A stretch of 18,210 nucleotides of DNA from Isosphaeraceae bacterium (GCA_021324445.1 JAJPJC010000335.1:1-18210), one strand, 5' to 3'; positions 921 to 18,210 are shown, counted from the stretch's first letter. Translations and numbers: made by a program. The notes: generated from the sequence alone by a model not told the origin.

Positions 921-1412
921 TCAGGCGGGGCTTTGCGAACGGGAGCGACCGCGGCGGATCGGCTCGATCTCCCGCGCCGGGGCATAGTTGGACGGGTCCC
1001 CCGCAGCAGGCGGGGGGATAATCGGCAGGAGCCGGAACGACTCCTCGACGATCCGGGCGACGCCTTCGGCCAGCGGCGAGCCGAGGAGCACGCGGAACTT
1101 CTCCATCAGTTCTTCGGCGCGGTCAGCGCTGGGAACGCGTCCCAGGGCCACCGGGGGCAGGGCCGGGGCCGTCGCCTCGGAGGGTTCTCCCACCGATCCT
1201 CCGGTCGACAGCGGCGTGATGTCCAGAAGAGCCTCCAGCGGCACCCCCAAGGCCCGGGAAATCCGCCTCAAGGTCCCGGCCTGGGGCTTGCTCGTATTGC
1301 CCCGCTCGATCTGGTACAAAGCTGTCCGGGAAATCTTGGCACGACTCGCCAACTCATCCGGGCCCCAACCCTTCGCATAACGAAGGTCCCGGATCCGTTT
1401 CGATAACTCCAT
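921..1412 (-). CDS. XRE-family helix-turn-helix transcriptional regulator with ~90-aa C-terminal extension
   Basis: Seen: N-terminus MELSKRIRDLRYAKGWGPDELASRAKISRTALYQIERGNTSKPQAGTLRRISRALGVPLEALL is the canonical XRE/Cro-C1 HTH signature (Q-x-E-x-G, L-x-x-I-A-x-A-L). It is convergent with the REC gene; its upstream region is the low-GC island. Confidence 0.8.
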   Translation of the reverse strand: MELSKRIRDLRYAKGWGPDELASRAKISRTALYQIERGNTSKPQAGTLRRISRALGVPLEALLDITPLSTGGSVGEPSEATAPALPPVALGRVPSADRAEELMEKFRVLLGSPLAEGVARIVEESFRLLPIIPPPAAGDPSNYAPAREIEPIRRGRSRSQSPA

Positions 1413-2500
1413 CGCTGACCTCGCTTCTTCTCGATGCGGATGGCCGATCGAAAGCGACTCTCAATTTCGCGGTACCATCCCACTCACGCTGTCTCTTCGT
1501 CGTCCTGACCCGTCCCGCCGGGGATGTGAGCCTCGAATCGAAGACCCGCAGACCCCCCTCGCCCCTCCGCCGATTCGCGGGAGAACCGAACCCAACCAAG
1601 ATGGTTTTCGAATTACATCGAGAACTCCCGACGAAAAATGATCGGAAACCGCGACCTCTTGGACCCGGTCGCCGAGAACTCGGGAAAAACCTCACGGTCC
1701 GCATTTTGAAGAGAATCCGAGAAAAATCGACCAAAATCGGACCGATCCAGGAGCTTTGGTGGTTACCAACGGCGAAGGTTTACAATTCTATTGTTAGCAA
1801 AAGCCTTCAGACTGTCAAGTTACGACGGAACCCAAGGGTTGTGATACCGCATCGAGAATTCCGACCTCCCGGCCGATCATGCTGATCCCACCCGCGACTC
1901 CGCGCCTCACCCCTCCGATCCACCTCGACCGTTGAACTGCACCCGATCATGCACTCGATGTAAACCTGTTTGCAGCGCGACCACCTGGATGCGGGGAAGC
2001 CGGCTCTGGGAAAAACGCGGGCCGGACTTAAAAAAGAAGCTATCAGCCAGATTATGCGGCACAACCTCCCACACCTGCCGAACGTCACAGCACAGGTGCA
2101 TGCAATCAACTATGCATAGAATTGACATCATCTCGGAAAAAAATGCGCATGGCCGAGCGACTCTCTTGCGGTGGGCTCTCCACCGACTATACTCATAGCC
2201 TGAGTTCATCCGCTGGTGATTGGATCGTCCCTTGGCCGATTGCACAGATCCCTGATACCGCTCAGGGCTCGACCCGCAGCGGCGACTCGGATTCGGTTCC
2301 CAGACCCCTCACGGGTGCCGTCGGCGCAATCCTGGGTCGACCCACGATTGCATGGATTAGCCGTAAGCAGGGATGGTCGATGAGGGGAGATCGTAGCTGA
2401 TCCTCAGCACAGGACCTGATTGGTTATCGGAAATGAGGGTTGGACCTCCAGCCTCAGGGCGGACGAGTGAATTCGTCACCCGCAGGGACGGTGGCGGCGC
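1413..2500. other. ~1.1 kb low-GC non-coding island (no ORF with host codon signature)
   Basis: Seen: a hand count of a 60-nt sample (1601-1660) gives ~47% GC, against ~70% in flanking genes. A-runs (gaaaaatga, ggaaaaaaatg, ttaaaaaagaag) occur nowhere else in the window. All ORFs in the track here are Arg/Cys-rich with poor GC3. A TTGACA hexamer lies at 2123-2128 and a TAGAAT at 2117-2122. Confidence 0.5.
1581..1861 (+). repeat. Five direct copies of GAGAAYYC(S) motif (iteron/operator-like array); two copies extended to ATCGAGAAYTCCGAC
   Basis: Seen: GAGAACCG at 1581, GAGAACTC at 1620, GAGAACTC at 1674, GAGAATCC at 1711 and GAGAATTC at 1854. All are on the same strand, spaced 39/54/37/143 bp, each followed by an A-run or GATC. 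The extended 12-mers ATCGAGAACTCC (1616) and ATCGAGAATTCC (1851) are quasi-palindromic. A 7-bp inverted repeat CGAATCG (1533-1539) / CGATTCG (1570-1576) lies just 5' of the array. Confidence 0.45.
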
Positions 2501-2530
2501 GGATCGCTCGTGGACTTTCAGGGAGAAGCG

Positions 2531-4437: not shown

Positions 4438-4754
4438 GGAAGTATCGCGCAGGCGTCTGGCCTACCCTCCTTCATGGCATGTGGTGAACCTCCCAGAGAG
4501 CTTTCACCCGGCAATCCCATTATGCACCGGTCCGGTGCTTGGTACGCATTCCACGACCGGACCTCGGGTCGGAGTGGATTCGCCGACGGGAATCGTCTCT
4601 TGAGATTCGCGCCCCGTCCTTGGAAATCGCGGTGGCGGTGTGCGATGTAATCGGAGACTCGAGGCCCGTGATTGACCTGGCGACGGTCTGGGGCAGGGGC
4701 AACCACATTCAACTCCACTGTGAACGGCTACCCCGGGCCGAGGCCCGGCGGCCC

Positions 4755-4800
4755 AGACCGAAGGGGGCGGCACGATGCCGCCCGGTCTTTCCCCTTCGGG
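4755..4800. other. GC-rich nested stem-loop (possible U-tract-less terminator or structured RNA element)
   Basis: Seen: outer 9-bp stem CCGAAGGGG (4758-4766) / CCCCTTCGG (4791-4799). It encloses an inner hairpin GCGGCA-CGA-TGCCGC (4767-4781). An alternative outer pairing is AGACCG (4755-4760) / CGGTCT (4783-4788). It lies in the 546-bp gap between the stop of the secreted-protein gene (4984) and the GT4 start (4437). No U/A tract flanks it on either strand. Confidence 0.4.
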
Positions 4801-4983
4801 ATTGGCACGGCGGCGGCAAATCGACCCGATCTGTTCTGGTGTCCACTCCACTTTATCTCCCGACCCCGATTTCTCCATTTCACACTGAACCAGCACACGT
4901 TCAGCGCGCTCGAGATGGGGATGAACACCAGCAGCCAGTTCAGCTTCATCGTTGCTCGCGTCCAAACCCCGCGCCGCCTCGCC

Positions 4984-6810
4984 TCACCTGGAGAAGCTCA
5001 GTCCCGGGTCGTCGGGGCCGTCGCCGGCCACCCGGAACGTCATGTGTTCGGCGTCCTTCCAGCTCAGGCGACCGACCAGCGGGGGGCCCTTGTCCTGGAC
5101 CAGAGTCAAGATGCCCGCCCCGTAGGTCGAGGTCCCGGTGAAGTGCTGCGCCTTGCCTTTCTGGTTGACCTGCCAGGTGAACTGGCCCCCGGGCTGGATG
5201 GTCAAGCCGATCTCGGTGTCCGCGGTCGGATGAGCCTTCCAGGTCCCGGCCATCGACGCGCCCTGGGGCGGGGTCGTGTCGACCGGGGCAGGCTCGGGAG
5301 CGGTGGCCGTCGTGGTCTGGTCCTTGGGCACATCGAGCTGGCGGAGCAACTTCGCCGACAGCGTATCGCTGGGCATCAGCGCCACCACCTGCTTGAGCAC
5401 GCTCACGGCCGCATCGATGTAGCCTTCGGTCAGGTAGTGGTAGCTGAGAACGAACCGGGCCGCGGCCGAGTTGGGGTTGGCCGCGCAAGAGTCTTCCAGC
5501 GCGCGGAGCTGCGCGGTGTAGACGTTGACGTCGGGGTAGAGGCTCACCAGCGTCGGCCAGTCCCAGCCGGGTCCGATCGAGAGCACGGCATAAAGGGTTG
5601 CGGCCGCGGCCTCATACTGCTTCAGGGCGAACTGGCAGAGCGCACGGAACTCGTGCAGGGCCGTGTCGTTGGGCAGCTTGGCCAGGGCGTCGTTGGCCTG
5701 CGCCAGGGCCTGCGTGTAGTTGCCTTGCTTGAACGAATCCCGCGCGGCGTCGAATGTGGCGATCGCGGGGTCGGCGACCGCATCGCCCGCGGGCGCAGTG
5801 GTGGTGTCGATCGGCTGCGCGTAGTCGTAGGGCACGGCAGCCGCGGATTGATCGACGAAGGCCACCGGGGCGGCGTAGTAGGGGTTGGAGTACGGCAGGT
5901 AGCCCATCCCATACAGCGCCGACCCGTAGCCCCAGGACGCCAGGCCGTAACCCAGGCCCATCCCCAGGCCCAGGCCCATCCCCCAGCCCCAGCCGCCCCA
6001 GTAGGGTCCACGCCAGGCCCAGGCGGCGTTGTTGTGTCCGTTCCAGTAGCCGTGGACCCAGCCGGCGTGATAGGCCCCGTAGGCGTTGTTCCCGTAGGCG
6101 CGATACCCGGCGGCGCCGCCGCGAGATCCGACGGCCGCTCCCCCGGCACCGACCGCCGCGCGGCCGCGCTCGCCGCCGGCGACGACGCCCCCGGGACCGG
6201 CTGCGAATCCACCGCGCGAGCCCGCGACGGCGGTCCCGCGCGGTCCGGCGGCGGCGGCCACGTTCGAGCGACCACCCACCGCGTTTCCAGCCGGCCCCAC
6301 GGCACCCCCGGCCCGGCCCACGTCCGTGAAGGTCCGCCCACCCGCCGTCGTCACCTGGGCCCCGGCGACCCCGCGACCGGCCATCCCGCCGCCGGGTCCG
6401 ACCACTCCACGCCCCGCGGCGCCGTAATCGATCGTCCCGCCCCGTGCGGTGGTGTCGGAGCCGGTCCGCGCTCCCGTGGCCATGCCGCCGCCGGCGTACG
6501 GGTTATATCCCCGAAACTCGCCACCCCCCCGATCGAACGTCCCGGCCGAGCTGAAGGAGGGCGTCCGGCCGAACGAGGAGGCGCCGCCGTAACCGCCGCG
6601 AAAGCCCTCGGCGCCGCCGGAGCGCATGCCGCCCATCTCGCCCCCGCGGAAGCCGCCCATCTCGCCCCCGCGGAAGCCCCCAGAACCGCCGGCTCGGACG
6701 CCGCCGCCGCCACGGAAGCCGCCTCCGCCAAACCCGCGCGCCAGGGCCGACCCACCGGAGAGAGCCACCGTCAGGCACGTCAAGACAAGGATCGTCCAGT
6801 TGCGAGTCAT
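4984..6810 (-). CDS. secreted protein: signal peptide, ~280-aa Gly/Arg/Ala low-complexity region with FRGG/RGG repeats and a Trp/Tyr/Gly-rich segment, TPR-like helical region, C-terminal beta-rich domain
   Basis: Seen: MTRNWTILVLTCLTVALSGGSALA signal peptide. Repeats GGFRGGEMGGFRGGEMGGMRSGG. The segment YWNGHNNAAWAWRGPYWGGWGWGMGLGLGMGLGYG. A TPR-like region QGNYTQALAQANDALAKLPNDTALHEFRALCQFALKQYEAAAATLYAVLSI...LSYHYLTEGYIDAAVSVLKQVVALMP. A C-terminal domain GTWKAHP...FTWQV...LTLVQDKG. The ATG at 6808-6810 overlaps the TGA of the upstream gene (ATGA). Confidence 0.8.
   Translation of the reverse strand: MTRNWTILVLTCLTVALSGGSALARGFGGGGFRGGGGVRAGGSGGFRGGEMGGFRGGEMGGMRSGGAEGFRGGYGGASSFGRTPSFSSAGTFDRGGGEFRGYNPYAGGGMATGARTGSDTTARGGTIDYGAAGRGVVGPGGGMAGRGVAGAQVTTAGGRTFTDVGRAGGAVGPAGNAVGGRSNVAAAAGPRGTAVAGSRGGFAAGPGGVVAGGERGRAAVGAGGAAVGSRGGAAGYRAYGNNAYGAYHAGWVHGYWNGHNNAAWAWRGPYWGGWGWGMGLGLGMGLGYGLASWGYGSALYGMGYLPYSNPYYAAPVAFVDQSAAAVPYDYAQPIDTTTAPAGDAVADPAIATFDAARDSFKQGNYTQALAQANDALAKLPNDTALHEFRALCQFALKQYEAAAATLYAVLSIGPGWDWPTLVSLYPDVNVYTAQLRALEDSCAANPNSAAARFVLSYHYLTEGYIDAAVSVLKQVVALMPSDTLSAKLLRQLDVPKDQTTTATAPEPAPVDTTPPQGASMAGTWKAHPTADTEIGLTIQPGGQFTWQVNQKGKAQHFTGTSTYGAGILTLVQDKGPPLVGRLSWKDAEHMTFRVAGDGPDDPGLSFSR
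6628..6675 (-). repeat. perfect 24-bp tandem repeat x2 (encodes EMGGFRGG x2) plus a degenerate third copy upstream
   Basis: Seen: GCCGCCCATCTCGCCCCCGCGGAA at 6628-6651 and again at 6652-6675, in frame within the low-complexity region. Confidence 0.7.
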
Positions 6811-7874
6811 CGGGGGCTCCTGGTCGGGTTCGGGGACGTGGAAGGCCCCGCCTGGACTCTCGGCGGAGTTCGCGGCGGGGGCGGGACGCGGACCATGACG
6901 TACGCTTGGGCCCCGGGGATCGAGGCCTCCCCGAGCACGCGGTCGGTCGAGGACCAGCGCACCAGGTCGGATCGCTCCCGGATCAGGATGTTGGTCGACG
7001 AGGCAGCGACCCCCTCCGGTCGGGCGCCGGTGTGCTTGACGAGCCAGCGGTCGCCGTCACGGCTCCAGGTCCCCTCGCCGAAGCCGCCTTCGGAGTCGAA
7101 TTCCCAGGACCGGATCCGCCGGGCCAGCGGGTCCCAGCCGATGCGCTGGGAGACCGTCATCACCGGCTTGCCCTGCTGCCTGACCGTGAACGAGCGGATG
7201 AGGAAATTCCCGTCCTCCGACCAGCGGCAATTGACCCGGACCTGCGAATCGGAGGCCTCGTCGACCCAGTCGCCGATCATCCATTCGAGATCCTTGAGCC
7301 GATCGTGGGGCCGGACCAGCGGGTCGGCCTCCTCGCGGACGCTGGAAATGAGCCAGCGCCCGCCGCGCTTGACATACAAAACTGTGTACGGCTGGGCCAG
7401 GCGCGTATCCTGGGTCGGCCTGACGATCGTGCGGCCCTCCTCCTGGGCGACATCCGGGCTGAGGAACCGGATCGATCCGATCTCCAGCGCGATCGTCACC
7501 CCCGGGCTGGCGGCGAAGGTGTCGGCGAGACGGCGTTCGATCTGGTCACGTCCCTGAAGATGGTCGCCTTCGGCCTCGACGGCCTCGGCATCCTCGGTGA
7601 AGAGGGCCGCCAGGGCCTTGCTGTCGCCCTGGTTATAGGCGCGGACAAAGGCCTCATCGACGGCGCGGACGGCCTGCTCGTCCGCGGATTGGCCTGGACG
7701 GCTCGCCGCGGTTCCGTCCCCTCTGGTGGACGGGTTCGCCCGCGGCGGCTCCGGCTGGGACGAGACCTCGGCCCCGACCTGGGAGCGGGCCAGGCCGGGC
7801 CCGAGGATGGTCCCGAGCAGGGCGATGACCGCCAGCGGACCGACCACGCGGAATGTCCTGTTTTGAGAGATCAT
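6807..7874 (-). CDS. exported protein with two tandem NTF2-like (SnoaL/DUF4440-like) domains
   Basis: Seen: N-terminal hydrophobic segment RVVGPLAVIALLGTILGPGLA. Domain 1 is VRAVDEAFVRAYNQGDSKALAALFTEDAEAV...GRDQIERRLADTF...RGGRWLI. Domain 2 is LEWMIGDWVDE...VRVNCRWSEDGNFLIRSF...DGDRWLV. Both follow the NTF2-like pattern of an N-terminal helix with Asp/Glu, an aromatic cluster and a C-terminal W-L-hydrophobic sheet. A Pro-rich tail follows. The stop overlaps the downstream start. Confidence 0.75.
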   Translation of the reverse strand: MISQNRTFRVVGPLAVIALLGTILGPGLARSQVGAEVSSQPEPPRANPSTRGDGTAASRPGQSADEQAVRAVDEAFVRAYNQGDSKALAALFTEDAEAVEAEGDHLQGRDQIERRLADTFAASPGVTIALEIGSIRFLSPDVAQEEGRTIVRPTQDTRLAQPYTVLYVKRGGRWLISSVREEADPLVRPHDRLKDLEWMIGDWVDEASDSQVRVNCRWSEDGNFLIRSFTVRQQGKPVMTVSQRIGWDPLARRIRSWEFDSEGGFGEGTWSRDGDRWLVKHTGARPEGVAASSTNILIRERSDLVRWSSTDRVLGEASIPGAQAYVMVRVPPPPRTPPRVQAGPSTSPNPTRSPR

Positions 7875-8140
7875 GAGACGAGCATGCTCCCGGGCTAACG
7901 AGTTGATGACGGACGCCGGTTGCGGCCCGAGTTGTCAAGCGAACGCGAATCGGGGGCCTCTTCGTCCCCGTGTTGAGTTGGCTGGCTGCTCGCGGCCATC
8001 CTCCGCGCCCGATCCCCGGGGGTTGGGTGCCACGATCCGACCATGCGATCAGCCGCACAGCGGGAACGTCCTGCGCCGAATCCGGATCGGCCGACGTCTG
8101 CGATCACGGTCCTGAGACTACTCGCCGCGACTCACAACAG

Positions 8141-8776
8141 TCAAGGTCCAGGAGCGGCAGCGCCGGCTGAGGGAATGGCCGCGACGGGGCGGTCGCCCGC
8201 TGGAGCGGAGGACGGGTCCTTGGGGCGTGCTTCCAGGAGCATCCGCAGGTAAGACCGGGGCTCCACCTCGGTCAAGCCCAGCTCGGCGGCCAGGGCGAGC
8301 ACGGCGGCTTGCGCCGCGGGGAGCTGGGACTCATCGGCCACCAGGATCTCGATCTCGGCGAAATCGCCCAGGTGCTCGGCGCGGTCGAGCGACACCTCGA
8401 GCCCGTGCGGTGGATCCACCAGGTGGAAGGTCGTCCGTGTCTTGCGGACCGTGGCGACCGGGCGGAATCCCAGGATCTCGAAGAGCCGCGCGAGCTGCGC
8501 AAAGGCGTCGGCGCCCGGGGCGAGTGGGAGCTCGATCTCGGTGCGGGTCTTGGTCGGACCCTGCCGCCGGGGACCCTTGTAGGTGATCCGGTTCTCATCA
8601 CCAATCCGCCGCAGCCGCATCGCCTCATGGGTCGCGGCGAAATCGCGGGAGGGATGGTTCAGATAAACGTCTTCCTGGATGACCGGCGCCGCGGCGGCCG
8701 CACCCCGCTCGAGGAGCCGCCGCCGGAGCTGGTCGTGATCGACCGATCGGTACTTGACCTCCACTTCGAAACTCAT
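8141..8776 (-). CDS. CYTH-domain protein (triphosphate tunnel metalloenzyme / class IV adenylyl cyclase-like)
   Basis: Seen: MSFEVEVKYR (the E-x-E-x-K CYTH signature at the N-terminus), followed by QEDVYL...MRLRRIGDENRITYKGP...TRTEIELP...FHLV...EVSLD...GDFAEIE. The start is chosen at the internal ATG 8774-8776, which gives the canonical CYTH N-terminus; the track ORF extends to 8878. Confidence 0.7.
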   Translation of the reverse strand: MSFEVEVKYRSVDHDQLRRRLLERGAAAAAPVIQEDVYLNHPSRDFAATHEAMRLRRIGDENRITYKGPRRQGPTKTRTEIELPLAPGADAFAQLARLFEILGFRPVATVRKTRTTFHLVDPPHGLEVSLDRAEHLGDFAEIEILVADESQLPAAQAAVLALAAELGLTEVEPRSYLRMLLEARPKDPSSAPAGDRPVAAIPSAGAAAPGP

Positions 8777-8997
8777 GGACCCAGCGTAGGCCGCAGGTCC
8801 GGACCGGTCAACCGCCAGTGCCGCGCGCGCGGCCGGATTGTCCCGAATATTCCCTCCGGGCGACGAATAACCGTCCACTCCGGGGATTGAACCACTCCGG
8901 TGACCCGGCTGATCGGGTAATCTTTGCGGGACCGAGGCCCCGGGCGGGATGGGCCGTCCGGAGCGGTCATCGCGTTCGTTCGCAGAGGAGCGTCGCT

Positions 8998-11277
8998 GTG
9001 GGGAGCCTGTTCTGGGTGTTGGCCATCGTCGCCATCGTGGTGATCGGATGTGAGCTCACCGGCTTGCGCTACATCGCCAACAACCGAGTCGGAATCGTCG
9101 AGAAGCTCTGGTCCGTGAAAGGGTCGGTGCCCGAGGGGCGGATCATCGCGCTGGAAGGTGAGGCCGGCTTCCAGGCCGAGGTGCTCCGCGGTGGCATGCA
9201 CCTCGGCTACTGGCGATGGCAATACCGCATCCATCGCGTCCCCCTGGTCACCATCTCCCAGGGCAAGATCGGTTACGTCTATGCCCGCGACGGCGAAGCC
9301 CTCCAACCCAGCCAAACCCTGGGGCAGGTGATTGCTTGCAATCACTTCCAGGATGCACGGCGGTTCCTGGGGGGCGTGGGGGTGAGTCCCGAACAGGAGC
9401 CGCTGGTCGGGCAGCGGGGCCGCCAGCGGGCGATCCTGCGTGAGGGCGTTTACGCCATCAACCTGGCGCTGTTCATGGTGATCACCGAGGAGGCGGTGTA
9501 TCGGCTGGAGACCGGCGGCTCGAAGGAGCTCAAGGCGCTGGTCAACTGGCAAAACGAGCTGGGCCAGATCGAAGGGTTCAGCCCGGTGATCATCGGTGGG
9601 CCGGTCGAGGCGCCGGACCCACTCAATCCTGGCAAGACCACCCTGGTCGACAGCACGGGAATCGTGACGGTGCATGACGGTCCGTCGCTGCCGCCGGGCG
9701 AAATCATCGCGCCGGCGGTGGGGTGCGACCGCAACGACAAGGACTTCCACAACAACTATCAGGATCCCGAGGCGTTTCTCCGCGCCGGGGGGCGCCGGGG
9801 CTTGCAGTACGTCCCGCTGACCGACGGCACCTACTTCATCAACCGTTGGTTCGCCACCATCGAGTCGATCCCCAAAACGATCGTACCGATCGGTTACGTT
9901 GGCGTGGTGGTCAGCTACTATGGCCGGAGTGGGCAGGACATCTCGGGGCAGGCGTTCCGTCACGGCGAGCGAGTCGGGGAGGGGGAGCGCGGCGTCCAGG
10001 AGAAGCCGCTGGGCCCGGGCAAGTATGCGTTCAATACCTACGCCGGGAACATCATCCTGGTCCCCACCACCAACTTTGTCCTGCACTGGGTGACCGGGCG
10101 CACCGAGGCGCATCGCTACGACGAGAGCCTCCGCTCGATCGACCTGGTGACCAAGGATGCCTACGAGCCGACCCTGCCCCTGTCGGTCGTCGTCCATATC
10201 GACTATCAGAAGGCGCCCAACGTCATCCAGCGGTTCGGCGACGTCAAGAAGCTGATCACCCAGACGCTCGACCCGATGCTCAGCGCCTACTTCCGTGACG
10301 TGGCGCACAAGCGGACGATGCTGGCGTTGCTCCAGGACCGCGATTCGATCCAGCACGAGGCGACCGAGGAACTCGGCCGCAAGTTCCACATCTTTGACAT
10401 CGAGTGCGTCGACGTCCTGATCGGCAAGCCCGACACCGAATCGGCCGGCGGCAAGATCGAGACCCTGCTCGAGCAGTTGCGGCTGCGGCAACTGTCGTTG
10501 GAGCAGGTCGAGACCTACTCGAAACAGGTCACGGCCGCCCAGACGCTGCGCACACTCAATGAGGCCCAGGCCCAGGCGCAGATGCAAACCCAACTGTCGA
10601 ACTCGATGGTGCAGATCCGCATCGCCGAGAACGAGGCGGAGGCGCAGCTCGCCCGGGCGCGCAAGCAGGCCGAGCAGGTCGTTGTCACGGCCGAGGCCGA
10701 GAGCCAGCAGCGCATCCTGGCCGGTCGCGGCGAGGGCGCGCGGGTGCTCCAGGAGGGCCTGGCCGAAGCGTCGGTGTTGCTCCGGAAGATCAACTCGTTC
10801 TCCGATCCGCGGCTCTATGCGCTCTCGGTCGTGGCCGCCAACCTGGCCAAGTGCACACAGCCGCTGGTGCCCGAGCGCGTCTTCATCGGCGGTGTCGGGG
10901 GCGGCAACGGCGCCCCGGGTGAGAACCCGCTCACCGCCGGGGGCGGCGCGGCGGCCGGGAGCGGGCTCTTCGGCCTGCTGCTGAGCCTGCTGGTCGCCGA
11001 GAAATCGGGCTTCCAGCTCGCCGAGCACCCCGCGGAATCGGAGCTCCGCGCCTTCACCGAGAAGGTCACGCGCCAGGCGATGGAGTCAATCCAGCAGTCG
11101 CTGGGACCGGTCAAACGCCCCAAGAATCCTCGGCTTCAACCGCAGGCGATGGACTCGATCCAGCAGGTCGTGGGCGAGGAGGGTTTCGCGCCGGAGCCGC
11201 GCGGCGACGCCGCGCCGCCTCCGACCACCACGGCCGCGCGCCTCGACGGCCTCGATGGCGGTCGCGCCGCCACCTGA
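8998..11277 (+). CDS. SPFH/band-7 (flotillin-like) membrane protein with long Ala/Gln/Glu coiled-coil C-terminal region
   Basis: Seen: GTG start at 8998 with SD AGAGGAG about 8 nt upstream. N-terminal TM helix LFWVLAIVAIVVIGC. A band-7-like core (GVVVSYYGRSG...KYAFNTYAGNIILVPTTNF...LPLSVVVHIDYQ). A flotillin-type EA/Q-rich coiled coil (QAQAQMQTQLSNSMVQIRIAENEAEAQLARARKQAEQVVVTAEAESQQRILAGRGEGARVL). The Gly/Ala-rich tail precedes a final segment ESELRAFTEKVTRQAMESIQQSLGPVKRPKNPRLQPQAMDSIQQVVGEEGFAPEPRGDAAPPPTTTAARLDGLDGGRAAT. The antisense ORF 8773..11028 is rejected. Confidence 0.65.
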   Translation: MGSLFWVLAIVAIVVIGCELTGLRYIANNRVGIVEKLWSVKGSVPEGRIIALEGEAGFQAEVLRGGMHLGYWRWQYRIHRVPLVTISQGKIGYVYARDGEALQPSQTLGQVIACNHFQDARRFLGGVGVSPEQEPLVGQRGRQRAILREGVYAINLALFMVITEEAVYRLETGGSKELKALVNWQNELGQIEGFSPVIIGGPVEAPDPLNPGKTTLVDSTGIVTVHDGPSLPPGEIIAPAVGCDRNDKDFHNNYQDPEAFLRAGGRRGLQYVPLTDGTYFINRWFATIESIPKTIVPIGYVGVVVSYYGRSGQDISGQAFRHGERVGEGERGVQEKPLGPGKYAFNTYAGNIILVPTTNFVLHWVTGRTEAHRYDESLRSIDLVTKDAYEPTLPLSVVVHIDYQKAPNVIQRFGDVKKLITQTLDPMLSAYFRDVAHKRTMLALLQDRDSIQHEATEELGRKFHIFDIECVDVLIGKPDTESAGGKIETLLEQLRLRQLSLEQVETYSKQVTAAQTLRTLNEAQAQAQMQTQLSNSMVQIRIAENEAEAQLARARKQAEQVVVTAEAESQQRILAGRGEGARVLQEGLAEASVLLRKINSFSDPRLYALSVVAANLAKCTQPLVPERVFIGGVGGGNGAPGENPLTAGGGAAAGSGLFGLLLSLLVAEKSGFQLAEHPAESELRAFTEKVTRQAMESIQQSLGPVKRPKNPRLQPQAMDSIQQVVGEEGFAPEPRGDAAPPPTTTAARLDGLDGGRAAT

Positions 11278-11351
11278 GAGCCCGCGGATGACGCCAGGAC
11301 GCCATCCGGGGTTGGTGGTCCAGCCAGAGCGGGCGCATCCACCCTCCCTGA

Positions 11352-11372
11352 CCCCCCCTGATCAAGGGGGGG
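11352..11372 (+). terminator. C7-TGATCAA-G7 hairpin (possible factor-independent terminator after the flotillin-like gene; no U-tract)
   Basis: Seen: CCCCCCC (11352-11358), loop TGATCAA, GGGGGGG (11366-11372). It lies 75 nt after the stop at 11277 and is followed by AAAGGGAGG, not a T-run. Confidence 0.35.
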
Positions 11373-11440
11373 AAAGGGAGGACCCCGACCGGATACCGAT
11401 TAAATTCCTTGATATATTTTTCTTACTGATTCTCTCGGGC

Positions 11441-11469
11441 TTGATCCCGCGTCGATCCTCGGCTAGAAT
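11441..11469 (+). promoter_or_regulatory. sigma70-like promoter for rpsR: TTGATC -N17- TAGAAT
   Basis: Seen: -35 TTGATC at 11441-11446, a 17-bp spacer, and -10 TAGAAT at 11464-11469. It sits in the only AT-rich patch (11395-11440) upstream of rpsR and predicts a ~95-nt 5' leader. Confidence 0.5.
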
Positions 11470-11565
11470 CTGGGTTTCGCGTCCGGGCCGCCGGGAGTGG
11501 CCAGGCCCAGTGACGCACCCTCCCTGAGTGATCATCCAGCGCAACTGACTGAGGTAAACGGGTTT

Positions 11566-11808
11566 ATGCCGAGGAAGAAGTTCGGACGCAACCGCAAGAA
11601 TCGTTGCCGTTTCTGCACACCCGAGGGTTGCCCTCGGCCGGCCTACGTCGACTACAAGGACGTCGGCCTGCTCAAGAAGCTCTGCACCAATCAGAACAAG
11701 GTCTTTTCCCGCAAGCGCAGCGGCAGTTGCGCGGCCTTTCAGCGCGCCGCCAGCGCAGCGGTCAAGCGCGCCCGCTTCATGGCGTTGCTGCCGTATGTCG
11801 GGGAATGA
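11566..11808 (+). CDS. rpsR: 30S ribosomal protein S18
   Basis: Seen: MPRKKFGRNRKNRCRFC...VDYKDVGLLKKLCTNQNKVFSRKRSGSCAAFQRAASAAVKRARFMALLPY matches the S18 family signature (CRFC, IDYKD-x-LL, KRAR-x-ALLPY). SD GAGGT lies 8 nt upstream of the ATG. It is monocistronic here, with no rpsF or rplI in the window. Confidence 0.9.
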   Translation: MPRKKFGRNRKNRCRFCTPEGCPRPAYVDYKDVGLLKKLCTNQNKVFSRKRSGSCAAFQRAASAAVKRARFMALLPYVGE

Positions 11809-11831
11809 GCCGCCGGTAGCCGGATCTCCCC

Positions 11832-15174: not shown

Positions 15175-16932
15175 TCATTTCACGACGCGCAGCAGCTCCT
15201 CGATCGAGGTTCGGCCCTGGATCACCTGACGCAGGCCGTCTTCCTGGAGGTAGATCATCCCATTCTTGCGAGCCTCGGCCTTGATCTTGTTGATCGACGG
15301 ATTCTCGCGGATCATGTCCCGCAGCGCCTCGGTGATGATCAGGAGCTCGTAGATTCCCGTCCGGCCGAAATAGCCGGTGCCGCCGCATTGCTGGCAGACC
15401 TGTTCCGGGTTCTCGGGACGGCGGTAGAAGACGTCCACCTTCTCGGCGGGCAGGTTGGCCTTCTTGAGGAATTCGGGCTTGGGCTTGTACGGCTCCTTGC
15501 AGGATTCGCAGAGGATGCGGACCAGCCGCTGGCCCAGGACCGCCGAGAGGGCTGAGGCGATCATGAACGGCTCGACACCCAGATCGAGCAGGCGGAACAG
15601 CGCCGTCACGGCGTCATTGGAGTGTACCGTCGAAAAGACCATGTGGCCGGTGTTGGCCGCCTGGCAGGCGATCGAGGCGGTTTCCTGGTCGCGGATCTCG
15701 CCGATCATGATCACGTCGGGGTCTTGACGCAGGATCGACCGCAAGGCGGTCGCGAAGGTCTGCCCGGCCTTGGTGTTGACCTCCATCTGGGTGACGTTGT
15801 CCAGGTGGTACTCGATCGGGTCTTCCACGGTGATGATGTTCTTCTGGTAGCGATCGATCTCGCGGAGCGAGGCATACAGCGTGGTCGACTTGCCCGCCCC
15901 GGTCGGGCCGCAGCAGAGGAACATCCCGTGCGGCTGGGTCACCAGGTTGCGCACCTGCTCGACCAGCTTGGGCCGCATGCCCAGCTCCTCGAGCTTGGTG
16001 ATCGAGGCGCTGTTGTCCAGGATGCGCATCACCAGCTTCTCGCCGGCCTTGGATCCCGAGGTGGCCACGCGGAAGTCCAGGTCCCGGGCCTGGAGCTTGG
16101 CGCCGAAGGAGCCGTCCTGGGGCTTCCGCTTCTCGGAGATGTCCATGGCCGCGAGGACCTTGAAGACGTTGACCACCGCATCGCCGGTCGGCCGGTCGAA
16201 CGGCTCGGCGGCGTGGAGGATGCCGTCGATCCGATACCGCACCGAGAGCTGCTCGGTCGACGGCTCCAGGTGGATGTCGGTCGCCCGGCGGAGCACGGCG
16301 TCATAGACCAGCTCCTTGGCCGCCATGTAGGACCGCGATTCCTCGGCCCGGCGCACCCGATCGGGATCCTCCTTGGCCGAACCCTGACTCTTGCCGACGA
16401 AGGTGATCGGCGGACCGGCCCGGTCCACCGGCGTGACGTCGCGGTTGAACAGCGGCCGCATCCCCAGCTTGAACAACAGGTCGTTGGCGACCTCGCCCAG
16501 GTGGTAGGGCGTCATCACCTTCTGGTCGTCGGGCACCATCTGGTTGCGGTTGTAGATGTAAATGAACAGCGGGATGAAATAGGCCAGGAGCAACAGCGCC
16601 AGGCCGATCAGGAAGAACCGGCCCCAGGGCAGCGCCAGCATCACGACCAGCCCGAGGACGCCGGAGAAGAACACGACGCTATTCCACAGGCCGAAGCGCG
16701 GGTTGTTCAGCTCCTGGGTGTCGTGCTCGACCCAGTCGGTGGTCCACACCCAGAGCAGGTAGATCAGCACGACCGGGATGAACTTGAAGAGGTTCAGATA
16801 GAGTCCCGGCCCCCGCACGACGGTTTGCGACTGCGCGAGCAGGACCGGGAGAACCTCGGCGGCTTCGGCGGCGCCGGCACCGCCGAGGAGCAGGATCAGC
16901 GTGGTCGCGAGCAGCAGGGACGGGCGAATCAT
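15175..16932 (-). CDS. GspE/PilB-family secretion ATPase with N-terminal 4-helix transmembrane domain replacing the N1 domain
   Basis: Seen: the hydrophobic segments are LLLATTLILLLGGAGAA, FIPVVLIYLLWVWTTDWV, VVFFSGVLGLVVMLALPW and FFLIGLALLLLAYFIPLFIYIY. An N2-like domain follows (ATDIHLEP...VRYRIDGIL...KPQDGSF). Walker A is GPTGAGKST. Other family motifs are ITVEDPIEY (Asp box), DVIMIGEIRD (Walker B) and TGHMVFSTVHSN (His box). The tetracysteine is CESC...CQQCGG. The whole ORF is continuous with uniform GC3. SD GAAAGG lies upstream. Confidence 0.85.
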   Translation of the reverse strand: MIRPSLLLATTLILLLGGAGAAEAAEVLPVLLAQSQTVVRGPGLYLNLFKFIPVVLIYLLWVWTTDWVEHDTQELNNPRFGLWNSVVFFSGVLGLVVMLALPWGRFFLIGLALLLLAYFIPLFIYIYNRNQMVPDDQKVMTPYHLGEVANDLLFKLGMRPLFNRDVTPVDRAGPPITFVGKSQGSAKEDPDRVRRAEESRSYMAAKELVYDAVLRRATDIHLEPSTEQLSVRYRIDGILHAAEPFDRPTGDAVVNVFKVLAAMDISEKRKPQDGSFGAKLQARDLDFRVATSGSKAGEKLVMRILDNSASITKLEELGMRPKLVEQVRNLVTQPHGMFLCCGPTGAGKSTTLYASLREIDRYQKNIITVEDPIEYHLDNVTQMEVNTKAGQTFATALRSILRQDPDVIMIGEIRDQETASIACQAANTGHMVFSTVHSNDAVTALFRLLDLGVEPFMIASALSAVLGQRLVRILCESCKEPYKPKPEFLKKANLPAEKVDVFYRRPENPEQVCQQCGGTGYFGRTGIYELLIITEALRDMIRENPSINKIKAEARKNGMIYLQEDGLRQVIQGRTSIEELLRVVK

Positions 16933-17088: not shown

Positions 17089-18210
17089 TTAGAGGATGCC
17101 CTGTTCGGGCAGGGTGATCCCCTTGAGCACCATCCGCAGAGTCTCCGGGTTGGGGGCGAATTCGAAGGCGACGGCGCGCTCGATCTTCTCCGCGACCACC
17201 AACTGGCGCAGGCTCTCGGTGAAGTCGACCATCCCCTCTTCCTTGCCCAGCCGGATGGCCTGGGCGAGCTTGAGGTCTTCCTCGTTGAGGATCAGCTTCT
17301 TGACAGTCGGGTTCATCCGCATGACCTCGACCAGCGGGACACGGGTCCGGCCGGTCGCCGCGGCATAGTCCTTGGTCGTCGGCAGCAGCTTCTGAGCGAC
17401 GATCGCCTTGAGGTTGAATGCCAGGTTCTGCCGCATGGCCGAGTGCATGTCCTTGGGAAACAGGTCGAGGATCCGGCTGATGGTCGACGGGGCGCTCGAG
17501 GCGTGGATCGTGCAGAAGACCAGGTGGCCGGTCTCGGCGGCGTGCATGGCGGCAAGGAAGGTGTCGCGGTCGCGCATCTCGCCGACCAGGATGATGTCGG
17601 GATCCTGGCGCACGGCGTGCTTCAGCGCGACGTCCCAGTTGACGACGTCGATCCCCACCTCCCGTTGATTGATGATACACTTGTCATCCTTGAAAGTAAA
17701 TTCGATCGGGTCTTCGATGGTGACGATGTGGCAGCGCTCGCGTTGATTGACGTACTGGAGCATGGAGGCGATGGTGGTCGACTTGCCGCTGCCGGTGACC
17801 CCGGCCAGGATGATGATCCCCTGGTCGTGGCTGGCGATTTCGCCCAGGACCGGGGGCAGGCCGAGGCCCTCGAAGTCGGGGATCGAGGTATTGACGCGGC
17901 GGGCGACCAGGCTGAGCCGGCCGCGCTGCCGGAACAGGTTGACGCGGAAGCGGGTCTCGTCGCCGTTGGGGTCGACGATGATGTGGGCGAAGTCGACCCC
18001 ACCGGTCTCCTCCAGGATGTCCTTCTGGCGGGGCGACAGCAGCGGGAACATGAGCCGATCCATGTCGTGGGTGGTCAGGACCGGCAGTTGCATCATCCGG
18101 AGCACGCCGGCCAGCCGCATGGCGGGGGGCAGCCCGACCTTCAGGTGCAGGTCGGACCCCTTGTACTTCATGACCATCCGGAAGAGCTTGTTCGCCTCCG
18201 GCTCGTTGGG
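17089..18210 (-). CDS. pilT: PilT-family (type IV pilus retraction-type) hexameric ATPase, 5' end truncated by window edge
   Basis: Seen: GSDLHLKVGLPPAMRL, Walker A GVTGSGKSTT, IVTIEDPIEF, ILVGEMRD, GHLVFCTIHASSAPSTISRILDLFP. These align with canonical PilT. The frame stays open to 18210 with no in-frame ATG, so the true start lies beyond the window. Confidence 0.85.
   Translation of the reverse strand, partial: PNEPEANKLFRMVMKYKGSDLHLKVGLPPAMRLAGVLRMMQLPVLTTHDMDRLMFPLLSPRQKDILEETGGVDFAHIIVDPNGDETRFRVNLFRQRGRLSLVARRVNTSIPDFEGLGLPPVLGEIASHDQGIIILAGVTGSGKSTTIASMLQYVNQRERCHIVTIEDPIEFTFKDDKCIINQREVGIDVVNWDVALKHAVRQDPDIILVGEMRDRDTFLAAMHAAETGHLVFCTIHASSAPSTISRILDLFPKDMHSAMRQNLAFNLKAIVAQKLLPTTKDYAAATGRTRVPLVEVMRMNPTVKKLILNEEDLKLAQAIRLGKEEGMVDFTESLRQLVVAEKIERAVAFEFAPNPETLRMVLKGITLPEQGIL

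Follow-up and report, generated by a model that had tools for sequence, protein, structure and literature searches.

Positions 1413-2530 of the DNA studied here probably constitute a control region common to two divergent genes, one for an XRE-family HTH regulator and one for a hypothetical protein, P205, and carry two sigma70-type promoters. The DNA is an 18,210-nt stretch from an Isosphaeraceae bacterium, referred to throughout as the window. An earlier note on it had singled out 1413-2500 as a low-GC, ORF-free island and had offered a regulatory hub, an unannotated ncRNA locus, an integration scar of foreign DNA, or a decayed gene as explanations. The first of these fits best with what we found: the divergent control region is conserved, as are two promoter-like elements and leader blocks within it. 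The gap between the two genes is unusually long for its genome, yet it is ordinary in kind.

The left flank is formed by the XRE gene (921-1412, minus strand). Its 163-aa product matches the Pfam families HTH_19, HTH_31, and HTH_3 with E values of 5e-12 to 8e-11, and its best NCBIfam scores fall far under every family cut-off. On the right lies the gene for P205 (2531-3145, plus strand), a 204-aa hypothetical protein with a third-position GC (GC3) of 0.84. Since Met1 is invariant among its 253 homologues and nearly all of them are 204 to 206 aa long, we place the P205 start at 2531. Shine-Dalgarno (SD)-like motifs precede both start codons by 5 to 6 nt, GCGAGG at 1424-1419 on the minus strand and AGGGAG at 2520-2525 on the plus strand. 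The P205 family, in which 48 columns are invariant among 31 members, seems to be restricted to Isosphaeraceae and related Planctomycetota. Profile searches of Pfam, NCBIfam, and the PDB returned no relative of P205, and an AlphaFold2 model built from 31 sequences was too poor to be used in a fold search (pLDDT of 42.7). In some genomes there is a second P205 copy that lacks an XRE neighbour (L010 and L016 share a contig, and L006 and L019 share a MAG).

Beyond P205, on the opposite strand, is a gene for a GT4 glycosyltransferase. We found the same succession of XRE, gap, P205, and this glycosyltransferase gene in 29 further loci of Isosphaeraceae, namely, 26 genome loci and the metagenomic loci L073, L074, and L075. 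The related loci came from genomes of Isosphaeraceae and other Planctomycetota, Paludisphaera among them. The XRE and P205 orthologues are divergent neighbours in all 26 genome loci, with gaps of 745 to 1661 bp; the metagenomic gaps measure 1106 bp (L073), 1403 bp (L074), and 1739 bp (L075). Across these syntenic loci the flanking proteins have diverged to about 50% identity, and in 28 of the 28 loci with measured GC the gap lies 5 to 15 points under the rest of its locus. In nearly every locus examined it is also the longest low-GC noncoding interval, a ranking made with a crude gene caller, so that the distribution is indicative only. The earlier note had proposed aligning syntenic regions to tell a conserved island from an insertion; the gap is conserved between the same genes in relatives and is not an insertion. 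Because the same low-GC, noncoding gap has been kept in 29 other loci, we conclude that it is native, old, and vertically inherited, and neither an insertion nor a pseudogene.

We then aligned the gap with that of its closest relative, L073, whose P205 is 85% identical. Conservation was confined to islands at 1413-1530, 1606-1655, 1766-1834, 2181-2270, and 2440-2530, which were 70 to 97% identical, while the DNA between them was 33 to 50% identical, roughly the level of alignment noise. As a near-neutral benchmark we used the four-fold degenerate sites of the XRE and P205 genes, which are 70% identical between the window and L073. Since these sites are only 70% identical, the best islands, at 90 to 93%, are under purifying selection. 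The two promoter-like elements described below lie in conserved islands, and the spacer between them (1835-2135) is A-rich and essentially unconserved, matching L073 at 37 to 57% of positions apart from 1965-1994, where identity peaks at 67% (about alignment noise). A-runs occur in it at 2011 and 2030, and in relatives the corresponding inter-promoter spacer is 330 to 660 bp long. A sub-clade (L006, L010, L030, L038, L074, and L075) shares a further conserved block in this spacer, GTGGAAATGTCCAAACCAYGATGAATGAATGCCGAAGAAAATGGA, some 200 nt ahead of the P205 −35; its counterpart in the window is faint (about 2005-2040).

The same spacer holds the two hexamers to which the earlier note had drawn attention. 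TAGAAT is at 2117-2122, as claimed, and TTGACA is at 2122-2127, one base from the claimed coordinate, and overlaps TAGAAT. We rejected this pair (2117-2127) as a plus-strand promoter: the hexamers are in the wrong order and are unconserved in L073.

A better candidate on the plus strand is P_205, a promoter-like element at 2164-2193 that faces P205. It comprises the motif TCTTGC (2164-2169), a −35 hexamer TTGCGG (2166-2171), a 16-nt spacer, and a −10 hexamer TATACT (2188-2193). Mean pairwise column identity over nine sequences was 0.89 in the −35, 0.36 in the spacer, 0.96 in the −10, and 0.48 in the +1 region. Conserved hexamers around a drifting spacer are the footprint expected of a promoter. 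The element occurs in one clade of nine sequences only, and other clades differ in sequence there. The predicted start is near 2200, which would give P205 a leader of about 330 nt; the distance from the −10 to the P205 ATG is 317 to 381 nt in eight of the nine sequences. An A7 tract (2137-2143, plus strand) precedes the −35 by about 23 nt, in an UP-element-like position. Most of eight aligned clade members have an A-rich run at the same position upstream of the −35, and it is weak in L006.

Immediately downstream of the predicted start lies a conserved block at 2205-2259 (plus strand) that would be transcribed early. It has the form TTCATC..TGGTGATTGGATCG..TTG.CCG..GCAC and is 90 to 93% identical to L073, with a column identity of 0.81 for its core over nine sequences. 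Within it is an imperfect inverted repeat, ATCCGCT-GGTG-ATTGGAT (2208-2225), at +8 to +25 relative to the predicted P_205 start. This pattern has a single match in the window and nothing like it at P_xre, the minus-strand element described below, and no motif is shared by the two elements. The block is a candidate operator or leader element. Farther down the P205 leader there is a 26-nt GC-rich palindromic hairpin (2326-2351, plus strand) with a local fold of −18 kcal/mol, an unconserved sequence, and no U-tail; L073 carries a different hairpin near this position. The leader ends in a proximal block (2440-2530, plus strand) that includes the SD-like AGGGAG and is 63 to 80% identical to L073. 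nhmmer matched this block in L073 and L041, and no consensus structure emerged.

On the minus strand, the promoter-like element P_xre (1773-1828) faces the XRE gene. Its −35 hexamer, TTGACA (1818-1813), sits within the 8-mer AACTTGAC (1822-1815) and is separated by 17 nt from a −10 hexamer, AACAAT (1795-1790). P_xre was the sole match of a promoter scan over 1200-2700, agreeing at 10 of 12 positions overall and at just 4 of 6 in the −10. The predicted start is near 1783, so that the XRE leader would be about 370 nt long.

Conservation of P_xre was most evident in comparisons across loci. Iterated nhmmer searches recovered the P_xre block in 16 loci, and the motif AA[GC]TTGAC was present on the XRE-facing strand in 20 of 28 gaps, 309 to 713 nt upstream of the XRE ATG, compared with about 1.5 gaps expected from its background of 0.049 per kb per strand. 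In relatives this motif is always followed, after 16 to 18 nt, by a −10-like hexamer (TAGAAT, TAAACT, TAAAAT, or TAATAT). Column identities at P_xre were less clear-cut, 0.64 for the spacer and 0.62 for the −10. Just after the −10, at the predicted start, nine relatives have the palindrome TGTTAACA, which is degenerate in the window. A second clade with different flanking sequence has kept the same P_xre layout. Its members (L022, L023, L025, L027, L028, L035, and L036) share the AACTTGAC −35 and have conserved flanks of their own, including an inverted repeat, CATCCTCCC..GGGGATG, upstream of the −35 (gap positions about 440-640) and a palindrome, GGAATTA-TACG-TAATTCC, located some 45 nt upstream of the XRE start (gap positions 1-170). 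These two are candidate clade-specific operators.

Two conserved blocks lie in the XRE leader. The proximal one (1413-1510, minus strand), which contains the SD-like GCGAGG, is 70 to 97% identical to L073, and nhmmer matched it in L073, L006, L010, L030, and L038. It includes a stem-loop with arms GGATGG and CCATCC (1438-1443 and 1475-1480 in the alifold model). The stem is conserved in sequence, yet alifold found no compensatory changes, and L010, L074, and L075 have uncompensated breaks in it. The other block (1606-1655, minus strand) is 83 to 90% identical to L073, the only locus in which nhmmer matched it. The gap has a single terminator-like site (1656-1640, minus strand), which is within the chance expectation of 1.6.

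Both elements thus have a −35/−10-like hexamer pair spaced by 16 to 18 nt, with A2 and T6 in the −10, and we infer that P_xre and P_205 are active promoters with the predicted starts. A literature search on planctomycete transcription start sites, promoters, and intergenic regions found nothing relevant. According to the model that we favor, transcription would proceed outward from two sigma70-type promoters separated by about 350 bp of drifting A-rich DNA. P_xre would fire from about 1783 (minus strand) and P_205 from about 2200 (plus strand). Both transcripts would have a long 5′ leader (XRE, about 370 nt; P205, about 330 nt) that ends in a conserved SD-proximal block. The XRE protein would control its own gene as well as P205 by binding the imperfect palindrome at 2208-2225, just downstream of the P_205 start, and, in other clades, the TGTTAACA palindrome where XRE transcription starts. 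The gene arrangement and the inverted repeat make the XRE protein the obvious candidate to bind 2208-2225. P205 is most likely the gene controlled by the XRE regulator. Leaders of 330 to 370 nt are long for bacteria, and, alternatively, there may be proximal promoters nearer the XRE and P205 starts.

The arrangement resembles XRE/Cro-CI-type regions such as those of SinR/SlrR, ClgR, and phage CI/Cro, in which a small HTH regulator is divergent from a neighbouring gene. The resemblance extends to back-to-back sigma70-type promoters and to an imperfect inverted repeat near a predicted start that is a candidate operator. Divergent regions between an HTH regulator and its target are typically 50 to 300 bp long, with overlapping or adjacent promoters. 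The gap differs from XRE/Cro-CI-type regions in that its predicted promoters are about 350 bp apart and its leaders exceed 300 nt each. Taken together, the two elements offer a comparative picture of sigma70-type promoters in Isosphaeraceae, AACTTGAC with a TAGAAT-like −10 and TCTTGC with TATACT, the latter with an upstream A-tract, and they draw attention to XRE and P205 as a conserved, putative regulator-target pair.

Of the other ways to read the gap, an unannotated ncRNA deserves the most consideration, and we regard it as unlikely. It could be a cis-acting leader (a riboswitch, an attenuator, or a protein-binding element) or a small RNA that would start near 2200 and include the 2205-2259 block or would be made from the minus-strand promoter near 1783. 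A conserved promoter followed directly by a 55-nt block more conserved than four-fold sites would suit such an RNA, as would the near-constant length of the P205 leader noted above, the sequence-conserved stem-loop of the XRE leader, and one pair of a hairpin at 2213-2234 that occurs as GC and as UA in three sequences each. In its long predicted leaders, conserved 5′-proximal block, and hairpins, the gap does resemble known cis-regulatory RNA leaders such as riboswitches and attenuators. Unlike them, it matches nothing in Rfam, folds no more stably than shuffled sequence, and shows neither convincing covariation nor a terminator/antiterminator pair.

Neither Rfam nor the leader folds nor alifold gave positive evidence for an ncRNA. 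At the gathering threshold, Rfam 15 matched neither the window nor any of 12 related loci, and when E values up to 10 were allowed for 1300-2650, the sole match was to a model of a fly lncRNA, which scored 13 bits where its threshold is 50. The folding energies of the leaders were those of shuffled sequences (z scores of 0.05, 1.10, and −0.9). Consensus folds of the islands had alifold energies of −2.7 to −13.7 kcal/mol, tiny values, with zero to two covarying pairs and other pairs broken without compensation; with a depth of just six to nine sequences per element, the power of this comparison is low. What is conserved is a set of short sequence-specific blocks rather than extended helices. 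Finally, in none of nine P205 leaders did a U-tailed hairpin, and hence a terminator of that kind, follow the 2205-2259 block.

A narrower version of the RNA reading gives the conserved 55-nt element at 2205-2259 a function of its own, as a new protein- or ligand-responsive motif of the roughly 330-nt P205 leader, with the XRE leader harboring a second. We judge this to be quite improbable, together with the broader idea behind it, that the family has kept a noncoding interval of more than 0.75 kb on account of an undescribed regulatory RNA. If it were true, an RNA leader motif absent from Rfam would control the Planctomycetota-specific P205.

It is very unlikely that a small protein or upstream ORF has been missed in the gap. 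The best example is a GTG-initiated ORF at 2216-2383 (55 aa), which overlaps the conserved block. Its first 12 or so codons, MIGS[SAT][LIV].R.H, look similar across relatives, the same GTG opens the frame in seven sequences, and codons 5 and 6 seem to have changed conservatively. Against this, the length of the ORF ranges from 17 to 55 aa among relatives, with unrelated sequence past codon 12 or so, and the third positions of codons 2 to 4 are invariant in five of the seven sequences, compared with 70% identity to L073 at the four-fold sites of the real genes. In L074 the GTG is replaced by GTT. The ORF also has no SD-like motif ahead of it, indels that are not multiples of three lie just upstream, and its product has no Pfam match. 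With its early third positions unchanging and its GTG missing from L074, the ORF is constrained in its nucleotides and not as a protein, and we rejected 2216-2383 as a small ORF on this substitution pattern together with the loss of the start codon.

The claim that the gap contains no ORF of the host type was borne out. No frame of 1413-2520 has host-like GC3, and an independent gene caller found nothing there. Third-position GC enrichment is strong in the flanking genes (GC3 of 0.80 to 0.92) and absent from 1413 to about 2520. Public gene calls in five assemblies of the same sequence contain nothing between XRE and P205, and our crude GC3-based caller predicted genes at 921-1412 (minus strand) and 2510/2531-3145 (plus strand) with none in between. 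Seven ORFs of 55 to 126 aa from the gap had no match in Pfam at E values up to 1. The homologous gaps behave in the same way. A conserved protein-coding gene in relatives would have overturned the description of the gap as ORF-free, and we found no coding signal in 26 homologous gaps; none of the longest ORFs in the gaps of relatives has coding-type GC3. In L075 the gap contains two gene calls with GC3 values of 0.58 and 0.67, compared with 0.80 to 0.92 for the flanking genes, and neither has a Pfam match. Comparison of the gap with the 26 homologous gaps by tblastx and blastn gave only short islands, and the translated matches were short and weak.

The drop in GC is also real. GC content is 57.3% in 1413-2500 and 67.9% in the remainder of the window, and the lowest-GC interval of 1088 bp starts at 1351 (56.4%, compared with a median of 67.2% for all such intervals). 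The 47 to 55% given by the earlier note is too low for the interval as a whole and is reached only by four 100-bp subwindows, the only ones at 43 to 49% GC: 1701-1800 (43%), 1751-1850 (47%), 2051-2150 (47%), and 2101-2200 (49%). These minima coincide with the two promoter-like elements, the lowest 100 bp lying on the minus-strand element. A-runs, which had been described as unique to the region, are enriched there without being confined to it; six of the nine A or T runs of at least 5 nt in the window are inside the gap, and all six are runs of A on the plus strand.

Two premises behind the suspicion of foreign origin did not survive. The genome is not as compact as had been assumed, crude gene calls covering about 78% of the window, a lower bound; the GC3-based caller misses some genes, 8141-8878 (minus strand) being an example. 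To call the gap compositionally foreign is likewise a misreading. Genes in the window have a GC3 of 0.77 to 0.92 and a second-position GC of just 0.37 to 0.62; they gain their GC of about 70% through a GC3 of 0.8 to 0.9, and the gap is low in GC because it is noncoding. Another intergenic stretch, 11401-11700, is also low in GC (56.7%), and low GC is therefore general for noncoding DNA here. In this lineage, low GC and the absence of ORFs are a mark of native regulatory DNA and not of foreign DNA, and the main value of our analysis lies in this correction. The stretch just mentioned belongs to a second low-GC region (11278-11831), located 3′ of a gene for an 819-aa SPFH/Band-7 protein (8818-11277, plus strand), with a T5 run at 11417 and a weak 103-aa ORF (11497-11808, plus strand, GC3 of 0.76).

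It is thus extremely improbable that the gap arose as a decayed gene or through horizontal acquisition of DNA of foreign composition, whether as a scar or as an insert. The GC below that of the flanks, the negative GC skew, and the A-runs would fit such an origin, but 29 other loci, with flanking proteins that have diverged to about 50% identity, have a noncoding low-GC gap in the same place, and other noncoding DNA of the window has the same GC. Neither the gap nor the 26 homologous gaps contain coding-type ORFs or translated similarity beyond short, weak tblastx matches, and the seven ORFs from the window's gap have no Pfam match. The gap does share with low-GC islands and integration scars a deficit of about 10 points of GC and the lack of host-like ORFs; it is unlike them in being syntenic across the family and in having no tRNA, integrase, repeats, or mobile genes. 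A scan of the window detected no tRNA or tmRNA. Comparison of the gap with the remaining window gave only chance matches of 13 to 21 nt, and the direct repeats flanking the gap were short and at chance level.

Two further candidates were discarded. The whole window contains no DnaA box (TTATCCACA-like, allowing up to one mismatch), which rules out a chromosomal replication origin. A 16-nt inverted repeat, 1327-1342 and 2539-2554, with 15 of 16 positions complementary in the window, has only 6 to 12 of 16 in five relatives and is probably due to chance. Its left arm is inside the XRE coding region, and its right arm is inside that of P205.

Several other features of the window and its relatives were recorded. 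The longest ORF of the window, 4672-7557 (plus strand, 961 aa), has no Pfam match and is probably a shadow ORF; the strand opposite it carries 4984-6810 (minus strand) and 6807-7874 (minus strand, DUF4440/SnoaL-like), with GC3 values of 0.87 to 0.88. The interval 7875-8817 (about 940 bp) was empty in the GC3-based caller. We rejected it as a second noncoding island, its GC being normal (68.7%) and the ORF at 8141-8878 (minus strand, 245 aa, GC3 of 0.80), which overlaps the start of 8818-11277 (plus strand), being probably a real gene. In L073, two TIR-domain genes (201-1060) lie just past the o171 gene that adjoins the XRE locus, and the window sequence ends short of the equivalent position. 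At the other end of the window, and unrelated to the gap, are two adjacent type II/IV secretion-system ATPase genes, 15175-16932 and 17089-18177, both on the minus strand, which match T2SSE with E values of 2e-119 and 1e-42, respectively.
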